64,000 nucleotides of DNA from a virus: IMG/VR virus record IMGVR_UViG_3300031963_000013. One strand, given 5' to 3'. This document shows positions 7,060-13,694 of the stretch, one piece after another. The notes beneath the pieces were generated by a model that made no database searches, had not been told where the DNA came from, and was given only the letters and a program-made list of their open reading frames with translations. The number at the start of each line of letters is the position of its first letter. Position 1 is the first letter of the stretch. The translations under genes and the position numbers were made by a program.

Positions 7060-7146
7060 GGAGGTTTGGCAGAGCGGTCGAATGCGTCGGTCTTGAAAAC
7101 CGAAATACGGGAAACTGTATCTGGGGTTCGAATCCCTGAGCCTCCG
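7060..7146 (+). tRNA. tRNA-Ser(UGA)
   Basis: GGAGGTT/AGCCTCC acceptor, TCGGT-CTTGAAA-ACCGA anticodon arm, long variable arm, GGTTCGAATCC. Confidence 0.95.
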
Positions 7147-7149
7147 CTG

Positions 7150-7223
7150 GGACCCTTAGCTCAATTGGTTAGAGCACCTGACTCATAATCAGGGGGTCGT
7201 AGGTTCAAGTCCTACAGGGTCCA
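7150..7223 (+). tRNA. tRNA with CAU anticodon, probably Ile2 (lysidine) rather than Met
   Basis: GGACCCT/AGGGTCC acceptor, CCTGA-CTCATAA-TCAGG; body resembles bacterial tRNA-Ile2. Confidence 0.9.
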
Positions 7224-7443
7224 CAAAAATAAACTCATGAAAAAAGTAAAAATAACTGAAGAGGACTTACAGATAATTCAGTACTATTTAAAAGAAGCAA
7301 ACGAATACGGACTTGCAGTTGAGGTTGTGGCTTGGGCTCTTAAAAGCATGAAGGAGAATTCGCAAATAAGCGTATCAACAGCTATCGCTTTGGGAGCTTC
7401 AGAATGGGTAAAATAAAATCAGTAACCAAAAACCAAACATAAG

Positions 7444-7593
7444 ATGAAGAAAATCATCGCAATTACGATGGCTGCTTTTTTATTAGCGGCGTGTGGCTCA
7501 GGAGAGAGCACAGAACAAGTTACGACAGATTCTACAACAGTTGATTCTACAGTCGTTGATTCCGTTAAAGTAGCTGTAGATAGCACTAAGTAA
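7444..7593 (+). CDS. 49-aa lipoprotein
   Basis: MKKIIAITMAAFLLAA-C lipobox, then repeated DST/DSV; below ORF-track cutoff. Confidence 0.75.
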   Translation: MKKIIAITMAAFLLAACGSGESTEQVTTDSTTVDSTVVDSVKVAVDSTK

Positions 7594-7602
7594 TACGGAA
7601 AC

Positions 7603-7757
7603 TATCGGGTGGTGAAAAGCGTACGCACGGCATACACACCCTCTCGTCTCGAGGGCGCTGATTAGGAAACAGGTAACAGGATACGGGTTGACCACGAAGC
7701 ATGCTAATTTGTCTTTTACTGAATCCCAGTGTGAAGGTTCGAATCCTTCCCCGATAG
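7603..7757 (+). ncRNA. oversized tRNA-like RNA
   Basis: TATCGGG/CCCGATA acceptor, GAAGG-TTCGAAT-CCTTC T arm, 20-nt D loop, CCCTC-TCGTCTC-GAGGG arm, about 77-nt variable region. Confidence 0.75.
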
Positions 7758-7770
7758 CAAAAACTAAAAT

Positions 7771-7871
7771 AGTCAGGTGGCGAAATTGGTAACGCAAGCC
7801 TTCACAGAGCAACTGAACCGCAAGTGAGTGAAGCACGTAGGTTCTTACAGGTTCGAATCCTGTCCTGACTA
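7771..7871 (+). ncRNA. tRNA-scaffold RNA copy 1 (anticodon arm replaced)
   Basis: AGTCAGG/CCTGACT acceptor, Leu-type D arm, ACAGG-TTCGAAT-CCTGT T arm. Confidence 0.8.
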
Positions 7872-7874
7872 CTA

Positions 7875-8081
7875 TGAGTAAGAGATACTCAGAGTCTTTA
7901 ATTCAAGACTTAAACAATGAATAGGGTATTGGACTGGACATCCTTAAACGCCAGTCTCTTTGGAATAAAGCTAGGTAACAGAGGCTCCAAGTAGTTTGAC
8001 TAATTTTAAGAGGGTAAGACCCGCAGGTTTATTGAAAGAAAGAAAACCGATACATCTACTCACCTGTAATCTCAAGGTGGG
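7875..8081 (+). ncRNA. putative structured ncRNA between tRNA scaffolds
   Basis: No convincing ORF; several stems and complementary terminal loops GAGAT/ATCTC. Confidence 0.55.
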
Positions 8082-8087
8082 GAATAT

Positions 8088-8185
8088 AGTCAGGTGGCGG
8101 AATGGTAGACGCAGTTGATTACAACCCCGAGGTAAAATCTTGGCGCAAAAAGAGTTGATTACAGGTTCGAATCCTGTCCTGACTA
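8088..8185 (+). ncRNA. tRNA-scaffold RNA copy 2
   Basis: Same acceptor and T arm and near-identical D arm as copy 1, unrelated middle. Confidence 0.8.
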
Positions 8186-8202
8186 TTAAAACAATAAAAG
8201 TT

Positions 8203-8400
8203 ATGAGATGTAAAATTATTGACAACAGAAAAGAAGGACAACAAAGAATAATTAGTAAGTATCTTTTCATTCCTAAAAGGATTGGAGATGAACGTAGATG
8301 GTTGGAAAGAGTATCTATCAAACAAACTTTATATAGAATGTTTGACGTAACTTGTGGTTCATGTTGGTGGGAATGGAGAGATACTGAGTGGGTAGATTAA
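8203..8400 (+). CDS. hypothetical protein
   Basis: AAAAGTTATG start; KYLFIPKRIGDERRWLE motif. Confidence 0.65.
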   Translation: MRCKIIDNRKEGQQRIISKYLFIPKRIGDERRWLERVSIKQTLYRMFDVTCGSCWWEWRDTEWVD

Positions 8401-8405
8401 AACAT

Positions 8406-8512
8406 AGTCAGGTGGCGGAATTGGTGTCAATTAAGTTACTCAAAAGGTTGTAAAGCTTGAATGTGGTACATTCTGTTGCTACTTAATATAGGTTCGAATC
8501 CTGTCCTGACTA
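8406..8512 (+). ncRNA. tRNA-scaffold RNA copy 3
   Basis: Same acceptor, near-identical T arm; middle closed by ATTAAGT/ACTTAAT. Confidence 0.75.
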
Positions 8513-10010: not shown

Positions 10011-10544
10011 ATGAATAGTAAAATAATCAGCTTTGCAATAGAAGCCCACAACAAAGTAAACCACCTGTATGATGGCAAACCTTATTCCGTCCATTTGTCA
10101 ATGGTTGCACATTATGCAGTAAAGTATATTGATGCAATACCTCAACAATGCTGGGGAACTGTATTAAATGCTGCATGGTTACATGATACTATTGAAGATT
10201 GCAGACTTACTTACAATGATGTAAAAGAAGTTGCAGGGTATGAAGTTGCTGAAATCGTTTACGCTTTAACAAACGATAAGGGTAAAAACAGAAAAGAACG
10301 TGCTGGCGAAAATTATTACAAAGGTATTCGTGAAACAGCTTGGGCAAAGTATGTAAAGTTATGTGATAGGCTTGCTAATGTAAAATATTCAGTTGATACC
10401 AATTCTCGAATGTTGGAAGTTTACAGAAAAGAAAATGCAAGTTTTTTAACTGGTTTAATGTCGGGCAGTTCTGATGCCTTAATTTATAAATACCCGTTGG
10501 AAGAATTAGACACATTGCTTTATGGCGTGTCAAAGGTAGCATGA
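10011..10544 (+). CDS. HD-domain small alarmone hydrolase (RelA/SpoT hydrolase, Mesh1-like)
   Basis: FA..AH, PY..H, AAWLHDTIED, VKLCDRLAN motifs. Confidence 0.85.
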   Translation: MNSKIISFAIEAHNKVNHLYDGKPYSVHLSMVAHYAVKYIDAIPQQCWGTVLNAAWLHDTIEDCRLTYNDVKEVAGYEVAEIVYALTNDKGKNRKERAGENYYKGIRETAWAKYVKLCDRLANVKYSVDTNSRMLEVYRKENASFLTGLMSGSSDALIYKYPLEELDTLLYGVSKVA

Positions 10545-11988: not shown

Positions 11989-12070
11989 GCCCCGTTGGTG
12001 AAATTGGTAGACACACCAGACTTAGGATCTGGTGCCGAAAGGTGTGAGAGTTCGAGTCTCTCATGGGGCA
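11989..12070 (+). tRNA. tRNA-Leu(UAG)
   Basis: GCCCCGT/ATGGGGC acceptor, CCAGA-CTTAGGA-TCTGG, variable arm, GAGAG-TTCGAGT-CTCTC. Confidence 0.95.
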
Positions 12071-12339: not shown

Positions 12340-12411
12340 GGTTCCATAGTTCAATGGAAAGAACGACCGCCTTCTAAGCAGTAGATCCAAGTTCGATTCT
12401 TGGTGGAACTA
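12340..12411 (+). tRNA. tRNA-Arg(UCU)
   Basis: GGTTCCA/TGGAACT acceptor, CTTCTAA loop (one C-A mismatch in stem), CCAAG-TTCGATT-CTTGG. Confidence 0.9.
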
Positions 12412-12623: not shown

Positions 12624-13694
12624 ATGGGACTTATGAATAACATAGACAAACAATACCAAGCATTACTTCAAGACATACTTGATAACGGTGTAAAAAAACA
12701 AGACCGTACAGGTACAGGAACGTTAAGTGTATTTGGAAGACAGATACGACACAAAATGAGCGATGGGTTTCCATTACTTACAACTAAAAAGATGTACTTC
12801 AAAGGCATTGTAACTGAGTTACTTTGGTTCCTTAGAGGTGATACAAACATCAAATACCTAGTTGATAACAATTGTCATATTTGGGATGGTGATGCTTATA
12901 AGAACTATTGTAAAAGTTTTGAACCAACAGATAGTCCGTATGATTTTAGAATTAAAGGTTTATTTGGTGGACCTCTTACACAACAGGAGTTTATCAACAA
13001 AATAAAAACAGATGATGAGTTTGCTAAGACGTGGGGTGAGTTAGGTCCAATTTACGGTAAGCAATGGAGACAATGGGAATATCAATATGGGGATGAATAT
13101 AGTGGTGGTCATCATTTACCAACATTAAAAAAACAAATAGACCAAATCCAAAATCTAATCAACGACCTTAAAACAAACCCAGACTCAAGACGATTAATGG
13201 TTAACGCTTGGAACGTAGGTGAATTAGATCAAATGGTACTTCCACCTTGTCATTATGGATTTCAAGTTTATACAAGAGAATTGAATAATCAAGAAAGATA
13301 TCATTTATTCAGAATACAGGATGAAGATATAAATCCTTATAAAACAATAAACGATACACCAACCAGAGCAATATCTTTAATGTGGAATCAACGTTCAGTA
13401 GATACATTCTTGGGCTTACCATTCAACATTGCTTCTTATGGTTTACTACTTGAAATAATTGCTAAAGAAGTTAATATGATTCCAGATGAATTGATTGGTA
13501 ACTTGGGTGATGTACATTTATATAGTAATCACATTGAGCAAGCAAAGGAACAAATTACTAGAACGCCATTTGAATTGCCTATATTGGCCATAATAAATGA
13601 TCCTAAATTAAAATTTGATGAACTTACTTTAGATAATTTTGCATTAATAAAATACCAAGCACACCCAGCAATTAAAGCACCTCTTTCTAATTAA
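12624..13694 (+). CDS. thyA: thymidylate synthase
   Basis: DRTGTGT, ELLWFL, LPPCH, QRSVD..LGLPFNIASY, DVHLY motifs. Confidence 0.97.
   Translation: MGLMNNIDKQYQALLQDILDNGVKKQDRTGTGTLSVFGRQIRHKMSDGFPLLTTKKMYFKGIVTELLWFLRGDTNIKYLVDNNCHIWDGDAYKNYCKSFEPTDSPYDFRIKGLFGGPLTQQEFINKIKTDDEFAKTWGELGPIYGKQWRQWEYQYGDEYSGGHHLPTLKKQIDQIQNLINDLKTNPDSRRLMVNAWNVGELDQMVLPPCHYGFQVYTRELNNQERYHLFRIQDEDINPYKTINDTPTRAISLMWNQRSVDTFLGLPFNIASYGLLLEIIAKEVNMIPDELIGNLGDVHLYSNHIEQAKEQITRTPFELPILAIINDPKLKFDELTLDNFALIKYQAHPAIKAPLSN

Follow-up and report, generated by a model that had tools for sequence, protein, structure and literature searches.

What can a transfer RNA (tRNA) gene be for when both of its ends are intact and its anticodon arm has given way to something else? 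The question is raised by three elements, called elements 1, 2 and 3, that lie near one another on the plus strand of IMG/VR virus record IMGVR_UViG_3300031963_000013, a 64,000-nucleotide (nt) stretch of DNA that is referred to below as the window. Each keeps the acceptor stem, D arm and T arm of a tRNA, here called the chassis, and carries an insert in place of the anticodon and variable arms. The three elements belong to a large RNA family, spread over hundreds of uncultured freshwater phages, that is absent from the literature searched, and individual inserts of this family recur almost unchanged in surroundings that share next to nothing else.

Anatomy of the three elements

The elements had originally been predicted from the letters of the window alone, as three tRNA scaffolds with shared ends and unrelated middles. 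This description held throughout: the Rfam tRNA model, an exact 23-mer and a family-specific covariance model all place them at 7771-7871, 8088-8185 and 8406-8512, with acceptor, D and T arms in common. All three begin with 5' AGUCAGG, followed by U8-G9 and a tRNA-Leu-type D arm of the form GGCG(G/A)AAU(U)GG, and close with a T arm. The leading T of the shared sequence TAGTCAGG lies one base 5' of each element, at positions 7770, 8087 and 8405. At the 3' side, the 23-mer AGGTTCGAATCCTGTCCTGACTA has three exact occurrences in the window, one per element, and none in 100 shuffles. Element 1 has the acceptor AGUCAGG/CCUGACU with A73, a Leu-type D arm, a T arm reading ACAGG-UUCGAAU-CCUGU and an insert of about 50 nt; element 2 has the same chassis and an insert of about 48 nt. 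Acceptor and T loop are also those of element 1 in element 3, which has a T stem of AUAGG/CCUGU and an insert of about 65 nt that folds as a long hairpin (z = -2.67 for the fold of the element); its D stem is not closed, a clear 3' strand being missing.

The elements scored 42.8, 43.4 and 31.9 bits, in order, with the Rfam tRNA model RF00005 (gathering score, 29 bits), whose alignment treats their anticodon region as a local gap of 36-44 nt, and ARAGORN in its default mode called none of them. The features of a canonical tRNA are thus present in the top half, namely a 7-bp acceptor, a D arm with G18G19 (with the reservation already made for element 3) and the T loop UUCGAAU, and an anticodon stem-loop with U33 and a purine at position 37 was found in none of the three. 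The predicted lack of a 5-bp stem with a 7-nt anticodon loop agrees with the local gap and with the missing default calls. The stems listed for the three middles exist, and no similarity was found among these middles. The sole extra match lay within the element 2 insert, whose first and last 11 nt form a direct repeat, AGTTGATTACA (8113-8123 and 8153-8163). This repeat is an outlier among the 135 inserts tested and resembles the trace that an insertion into a minimal element would leave.

A phage family built on one chassis

A covariance model (R1) was built from 42 family members. It scored elements 1, 2 and 3 at 75.5, 81.7 and 62.8 bits, full-length matches far above those of real tRNAs, as the next-best matches in the window (real tRNAs and a 155-nt element) all remained at or below 31.5 bits. 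By this measure the three elements are members of a tRNA-like phage RNA family defined by the AGUCAGG chassis, and the proposed check, a model of the conserved arms followed by the collection of homologs, recovered both them and a wide phage family. The exact 23-mer was present in more than 120 IMG/VR contigs, itself a lower bound, with up to six copies per locus among the matches listed, and element lengths across the family range from 54 to about 200 nt. An unbiased set was formed by 79 loci fetched solely because they encode a relative of the 221-residue protein that neighbors the elements in the window. In this set, R1 found about 35 members at 45 bits or more, of which 33 of 35 lay on the gene strand. 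Taken as a whole, the family occurs in hundreds of phages, with 40-58% identity among their proteins, and no phage among the 50,697 cultured-phage records of INPHARED carries the chassis.

Prokaryotic genomes were examined with one genome for each of 185,579 species. The 23-mer occurred 18 times, always in contigs of metagenome-assembled genomes (MAGs), 10 of them assigned to Bacteroidota, and every occurrence was an anticodon-less element, never a host tRNA. No host tRNA in these GTDB species genomes has the same 3' half, and none has the acceptor AGUCAGG with its A1-U72 pair. The D and T arms of the elements are nearly equal to those of a tRNA-Leu(CAA) from one Chitinophagia MAG, from which the acceptor alone differs. 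Together with the taxonomy of the MAGs and the absence of Shine-Dalgarno-like leaders, these Chitinophagia-like arms suggest that the hosts are Bacteroidota.

Identity and origin of the elements

We counted an anticodon arm as canonical when, at the place expected for the anticodon, a stem of 5 bp closed a 7-nt loop that had U33 and a purine in position 37. One of 168 non-redundant inserts contained such an arm, compared with 0.5 expected from shuffles. When introns were allowed, ARAGORN reported elements 1 and 2 as tRNA-Cys(ACA), interrupted by an intron in position 38, and element 3 as tRNA-Asn(GUU). Across the family, such calls had arbitrary anticodons, many with A34, as well as G-U-rich stems and non-canonical intron positions. 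An identity as intron-containing tRNAs therefore failed, as there is neither a consistent anticodon nor a canonical 37/38 intron whose removal restores an anticodon arm.

Other identities were likewise rejected. Transfer-messenger RNA (tmRNA) was detected neither by ARAGORN -m nor by the Rfam tmRNA models, and the commonest 3:70 pair of the family is U-A, not G-U. A miniature inverted-repeat transposable element was considered on account of the 8-bp inverted ends, which correspond to the acceptor stem plus U-1/A73; no internal sequence is common to the members. Direct repeats in the flanks, the mark of a target-site duplication, did not exceed chance, and the one 11-nt repeat is that of element 2. 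An eighth base pair between positions -1 and 73 was rejected because -1 remains T when position 73 is G.

Traces of the probable ancestor are present in a minority of members. A weak YUUAAR relic stands at the anticodon position in about 1 of 10 inserts, and four members (L066, L075, L106 and L029) still resemble tRNA-Leu(UAA) with an enlarged variable region, which points to descent of the family from a phage tRNA-Leu(UAA) gene. A Leu-type core has been kept, comprising A14, A15, G18G19, A20a, the U that closes the insert in 143 of 168 cases, and A73. The set by which leucyl-tRNA synthetase (LeuRS) recognizes its tRNA (A73, A15-U48, G18G19, A20a and the contacts between D and T loops) is accordingly complete in elements 1 and 2, as it is in the majority of members. 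The identity elements of Escherichia coli LeuRS match this retained set, with the anticodon and variable arms being dispensable for charging and G73 acting as an anti-determinant (PMC9976931). Charging with leucine is therefore possible for the members with A73, while a family variant with G73, described below, argues against charging as the conserved function.

Covariation and flanks of the chassis

Acceptor stems that depart from AGUCAGG/CCUGACU remain paired through double changes, as in GGUCAGG/CCUGACC, AGCCAGG/CCUGGCU and AGCCAAG/CUUGGCU and, further from the common form, UACUACG/CGUAGUA, ACACAAG/UUUGUGU and UGUGUGG/CCACACA. Compensatory changes were seen in 10 of the 12 pairs of the acceptor and T stems, in sequences that came from a scan requiring pairing. 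A separate scan that took just the D and T arms as anchors was therefore added, and it returned all seven acceptor pairs in 19 of 22 cases. The D stems also covary. At the borders of the insert, the final nucleotide is U in 143 of 168 cases, which fits an A15-U48 pair, and 138 of 168 inserts start with A or U. The compensatory changes in the stems show a chassis under selection at the RNA level.

The flanks of the elements are those of tRNA genes. The base at -1 is U, the residue favored by RNase P, in 83% of members, and it does not covary with position 73. A73 is followed by C in 96-97%, and then by A/T-A-A. Among real tRNA genes of these loci (L001-L225 and the window), 190 of 190 have C after the discriminator and then an A-rich trailer, and CCA is encoded in 15 of the 190. 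The same flank pattern, C after the discriminator and an A-rich trailer, was present in five Bacteroidota MAG tRNA genes (four Leu and one Ser).

Inserts are conserved individually and combine with different acceptors

Among 218 members, nearly every insert is unique, and the remainder form 23 small clusters within which insert identity is 78-100% (84-100% for every pair except one). The middle measures 17-209 nt, with a median insert of 53 nt, and minimal element forms of 50-54 nt exist. For 15 pairs of loci that share an insert, the 1.5 kb on each side showed no similarity by blastn or tblastx, except for two blastn matches of 27-38 nt. Given near-identical inserts in unrelated flanks, the element, insert included, is a self-contained unit, one under strong conservation or one that moves between genomes. 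Folding is maintained as well in some of these inserts. Between L010 and L042, three pairs of the insert hairpin change in a compensatory manner while the loop stays unchanged (e.g., GUUGAA/UUCAAC versus GAGCAA/UUGCUC), and insert cluster 1 has one compensatory pair, with its variation concentrated in the apical loop.

The insert of element 2, including its 11-nt repeat, recurs in another phage contig (L219:7318-7417; IMGVR_UViG_3300046009_009408), where 46 of 48 nt agree by hand count. The D and T arms of this relative are identical to those of element 2, but its acceptor is UGUGUGG/CCACACA and its discriminator is G73. A second element on the same contig has nearly the same variant acceptor, and its insert is that of an AGUCAGG-type element from a different source (L213). 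The chassis UGUGUGG/CCACACA-G was found nowhere else in IMG/VR. The occurrence of one insert on wholly different acceptor stems shows that inserts and acceptor stems assort independently, as separable modules. These comparisons also show acceptor changes that are concerted within a genome, and a discriminator A73, hence a presumed leucine identity, that is not universal in the family. The simplest route for the exchange would be crossovers in the 17-nt identical segments of the D and T arms.

In a separate observation, an extra T-arm-like hairpin (GGUUCGAWUCC) is contained within the inserts of L015:2223-2480, L208, L036, L029, L050 and L020.

The RNA island and its other structured RNAs

The elements are part of an RNA island at 7060-8512 on the plus strand (Table 1). 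Baseplate wedge, large terminase and portal proteins encoded in the window indicate a myovirus-like phage, which has no close relatives among the 50,697 cultured-phage records.

Table 1. Features of the RNA island and of the genes that adjoin it, with positions in the window
Feature	Positions	Strand	Evidence or remark
tRNA-Ser(UGA) and tRNA-Met(CAU), real tRNAs heading the island	7060..7224	+	ARAGORN, Rfam
Two short open reading frames	between the tRNA-Ser/tRNA-Met pair and the 155-nt RNA	+	
155-nt oversized tRNA-like RNA, second family	7603..7757	+	own scan
Element 1	7771..7871	+	Rfam tRNA, R1
Structured RNA of ~210 nt (216-nt spacer), filling the interval between elements 1 and 2	7872..8087	+	homologs, alignment A1
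Element 2	8088..8185	+	Rfam tRNA, R1
65-residue gene, phrog_11031 (E = 2.4e-11)	8203..8400	+	17 nt past element 2, 5 nt short of element 3
Element 3	8406..8512	+	Rfam tRNA, R1
Two genes of 74 and 221 residues	8541..9432	+	begin 28 nt past element 3

The ~210-nt RNA between elements 1 and 2 has full-length homologs at nine other loci (L115, L176, L048, L208, L009, L134, L052, L015 and L069) and partial matches at four more (L160, L162, L041 and L010). An alignment of nine full-length sequences including that of the window (A1; L176 is additional) contains several helices with 11 pairs that show compensatory changes, and Rfam has no match for this RNA. Both of its ends always lie 2-5 nt from a tRNA or tRNA-like element, and in L048 it stands between tRNA-Thr and tRNA-Ile. 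Since tRNAs and elements flank it alike, the elements can presumably occupy the places of real tRNAs as flanking cleavage sites. The exact fit of this conserved RNA between elements 1 and 2 is the reason why the elements also appear to serve as cleavage punctuation. Across the family, open reading frames (ORFs) start at a median of 46 nt past an element. Directly upstream of the ~210-nt RNA, L115:2447-2529 and the identical sequence in L176 represent a 5'-truncated element in which AT-rich DNA replaces the 5' acceptor strand and the D arm, whereas the insert, the T arm and the 3' acceptor strand are intact.

The 155-nt RNA has a U1-A72 pair, G73 and the T arm GAAGG-UUCGAAU-CCUUC, and it scores 31.4 bits with R1. 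ARAGORN calls it only with a forced "intron" of 82 nt, and Rfam has no match. Its relatives in L011, L034, L047 and L083 have covarying acceptors, the family ranging from 155 to 176 nt, and the acceptor of the L011 member resembles the AGUCAGG chassis at positions 2-7. With two further unclassified structured RNAs in the same island, the RNA repertoire of these phages is richer than annotations show.

The 74- and 221-residue genes downstream of element 3 match no Pfam family and have 374 relatives in IMG/VR. There is no terminator-like site between the three elements or directly beside them; a single one (7454-7471) lies inside the island, upstream of the 155-nt RNA. Sigma-70 promoters and intrinsic terminators were not enriched around the island in a scan that does not cover Bacteroidota promoters.

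Elsewhere in the window, positions 200-249 on the plus strand contain a 50-nt mini tRNA-like minihelix with the acceptor GAUCGGG/CCCGAUC, a T arm and G73 (Rfam tRNA, 31.2 bits), and similar minimal forms of 52-56 nt are found in L038, L174, L175 and L060. A phage tmRNA (Rfam, 68.8 bits) adjoins family members in L060:553-939 on the minus strand. Downstream of the island of the window lie, on the plus strand, a gene for an HD-domain phosphohydrolase (10011-10544; phrog_990; Pfam HD_4 at 27.0 bits against a cut-off of 27.2 bits) and one for thymidylate synthase (12624-13694), with tRNA-Leu(UAG) at 11989 and tRNA-Arg(UCU) at 12340 between them.

Interpretation

The reading that we favor, with slightly less than even confidence, takes the elements as stable RNAs that are matured like tRNAs on a tRNA-Leu chassis, with the insert as the working part and punctuation as a second role. 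They would be co-transcribed with the adjoining tRNAs, with further small RNAs and with early genes. Their 5' end would then be cut by RNase P, and the tRNA-maturation pathway of the host would trim the 3' end and complete the CCA. The acceptor, D and T arms would fold into a tRNA-like elbow that confers precise ends and stability, as in an engineered "tRNA scaffold", and the insert, standing in for the anticodon and variable arms, would be a functional payload. This payload is probably not an antisense guide but a site that binds some factor of the host or phage, or a decoy for one. Inserts would be swapped between phages as cassettes, most simply by recombination where the sequences of the D and T arms are near-invariant. 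A second role, or a by-product, would be the punctuation of the polycistronic transcript, which would release the ~210-nt RNA and short messenger RNAs. In this account, the sequences themselves show the anatomy, the size of the family, the processing-type flanks, the covariation, and inserts that are conserved and modular; expression, processing, stability and a binding partner of the insert are what we infer.

Several of the functions suggested in the original prediction can now be set against the family. A stabilizing scaffold with variable cargo came out as the best-supported of them, in view of insert conservation in unrelated contexts and of compensatory hairpins, but its guide version is not supported, as the proposed comparison of the middles with the window, their flanks, 2 Mb of related phage DNA and tRNAs gave no complementarity above chance. 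The suggestion that the elements punctuate the transcript was strengthened as an additional role by a structured spacer RNA of ~210 nt that always abuts tRNAs or tRNA-like elements. For homology anchors, the part concerning exchange is in keeping with the same insert on different acceptors between identical D and T arms, while the covariation shows selection at the RNA level. The original argument that a conserved top half with a varying middle is not simple pseudogene decay held up, in view of family size, covariation and insert conservation.

A number of results weigh against the reading that we favor. Inserts are on average just 1.6 kcal/mol more stable than shuffles, their closing (anticodon-like) helix is not enriched (35 versus 33 of 174), they share no motif, and none of them matches an Rfam family. 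The element 1 insert has no exact 20-mer, and that of element 3 no exact 21-mer, in IMG/VR or the JGI metagenomes, so that the evidence from conservation does not extend to these two inserts. Identical inserts in unrelated flanks could also reflect recent transfer rather than selection. As for targets, the best antisense matches of the three inserts within the window (18-22 bits) are at shuffle level, pairing of inserts with their own 120-nt flanks equals that with permuted flanks, protospacer-like matches of all inserts, sought in 2 Mb of related phage DNA after masking of the elements, reach at most 17 nt, about the chance level, and complementarity to the 190 real tRNAs is that of shuffles. 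Stretches of 13-15 nt shared with real tRNAs in the sense orientation were slightly commoner in inserts than in shuffles (5 versus 0.8). Finally, no partner protein and no obligate neighboring protein family was found; the commonest family near elements is the 74/221-residue gene family, at 27 of 139 loci, which accounts for 8 of the 106 nearest downstream ORFs compared with 1.4% of all ORFs.

Could punctuation be all that the elements do, the top half recruiting RNase P and the 3' tRNA-processing enzymes and the insert being a tolerated spacer? We regard this as unlikely. It fits a ~210-nt RNA that lies within 2-5 nt of an element or tRNA on both sides at every locus, with tRNAs as substitutes in L048, the short distances to ORFs (gaps of 17, 5 and 28 nt in the window; median ORF start 46 nt past an element), and inserts that are weakly structured and mostly unique. 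However, mere spacers would hardly stay 84-100% conserved amid unrelated flanks or keep hairpins by compensatory changes, nor have they been pruned, as the median insert has 53 nt and some have ~200 nt despite minimal forms of 50-54 nt, and neither RNase P nor RNase Z needs a near-invariant acceptor sequence. Quite improbable in our view are decoys or sponges for factors that read the top half, such as tRNA-directed defense nucleases, acceptor-end toxins, LeuRS or EF-Tu, to which an RNA without an anticodon arm would present itself as uncleavable or non-decoding. The conservation of individual inserts across phages is left unexplained by such decoys, the L219 variant has the G73 that E. coli LeuRS rejects, and no defense or counter-defense gene is linked to the elements. 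The idea does account for the Leu-type identity set in most copies, the absence of the usual cleavage target, the several copies per genome, and an acceptor unlike that of host tRNA-Leu on D and T arms that are nearly the host's.

If selection acted on DNA instead, chassis segments of 17-26 nt might serve as homology anchors that promote recombination and shuffle genes and RNAs between co-infecting phages. One insert that is joined to different acceptors while its D and T arms stay identical, the same element in unrelated flanks, and several same-strand copies a few hundred bases apart would all be expected from this. Selection on an RNA fold is nevertheless evident from acceptor, T and D stems that change in a compensatory way, from the conservation of positions that form tertiary pairs and from flanks of the tRNA type, and target-site duplications are lacking, which makes anchors alone very improbable. 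We consider it highly unlikely that the elements are functionless, decaying duplicates of tRNA-Leu(UAA) with ends homogenized by gene conversion. The weak YUUAAR relics, the four tRNA-Leu(UAA)-like members and acceptor variants common to the copies within a genome are compatible with decay, but decay does not predict a family present in hundreds of phages with proteins 40-58% identical, stems that covary, inserts conserved across unrelated contexts or a strong strand bias. Real tRNAs with short introns, spliced to decoding tRNAs, are scarcely credible. The ARAGORN calls for the three elements would fit them, but the calls across the family are arbitrary in anticodon, stem and position, a group I intron would need more room than the inserts offer, and Rfam detects no intron; protein-dependent tRNA splicing is not known in bacteria. 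None of these rivals explains the conservation of inserts as well as payload RNAs on a tRNA-Leu chassis do.

A more far-reaching version of the payload reading, which we offer as speculation and think rather unlikely, is that freshwater phages, probably of Bacteroidota, share an "RNA cassette" system. One universal chassis, derived from tRNA-Leu, would provide expression, exact processing and stability, and hundreds of inserts would be traded by recombination in the invariant D and T arms, each an RNA effector (aptamer or decoy) directed at a particular host defense or another host factor. If true, it would be the RNA counterpart of the protein accessory-gene ("moron") and anti-defense repertoire.

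Significance

RNAs that mimic tRNAs are already known, among them tmRNA, Y RNA-like RNAs, T4 species 1 RNA and viral tRNA-like ends. A large natural family with a single tRNA chassis and hundreds of unrelated, individually conserved inserts is not described in the literature searched, and the family has no separate Rfam entry. If the inserts are effectors, they would constitute a new layer of phage-host interaction and a natural precedent for the tRNA-scaffold method. In any event, annotation pipelines will either overlook these genes or wrongly record them as unusual tRNAs or tRNAs with introns.

Comparison with known systems

The class II tRNA-Leu of bacteria and phages (RF00005) shares with the elements the seven-bp acceptor, A73, a D arm of the type GGCGGAAU(U)GGUAGACGC, the T arm and the gene flanks. 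The arms are nearly those of a tRNA-Leu(CAA) from one Chitinophagia MAG and of phage tRNA-Leu genes, and a few family members keep a loop like the UAA anticodon loop. The family differs from tRNA-Leu in having no anticodon arm (with the single case among 168 inserts), a middle of 17-209 nt that differs in nearly every copy, and the acceptor AGUCAGG with A1-U72, which belongs to no host tRNA of the species genomes searched. The closest artificial parallel is the engineered tRNA scaffold, in which the anticodon arm is replaced and the RNA is processed and protected in E. coli (Ponchon and Dardel; PMC3753655). It likewise keeps the acceptor, T and D arms and exchanges the anticodon stem-loop for another RNA, but it is man-made and has a designed closing helix, for which natural inserts show no enrichment.

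The bacterial Y RNA-like RNA YrlA is described as a tRNA mimic (PMC4201824). Both YrlA and tmRNA resemble the elements as mimics that join an acceptor/T-arm module to a non-tRNA domain. The family departs from tmRNA in being undetected by tmRNA models and far shorter, with U-A rather than G-U at 3:70 and an intact D arm. In YrlA, the tRNA-like part lies inside the molecule and its termini pair as the Ro-binding stem, whereas the ends of the family form the acceptor stem. The TMERs of murid gammaherpesvirus 68 use a viral tRNA-like unit as a processing handle for attached small RNAs. They belong to a eukaryotic RNA polymerase III system in which RNase Z releases hairpins that lie downstream of the tRNA-like unit, so that the attached RNA trails the unit and is not embedded in it as in the elements.

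The nearest described analogue is T4 species 1 RNA (rnaC). There is no sequence homology between rnaC and the family beyond a generic T arm, and rnaC obtains 17.5 bits on the tRNA-Sec model without any tRNA match. It is nonetheless a stable RNA from a phage tRNA cluster that has, in its 3' part, an acceptor-like stem (CGGAACG/CGUUUCG), a T arm and no anticodon arm. While rnaC is a single-copy RNA with a 5' extension, the family described here is multi-copy and carries exchangeable inserts.

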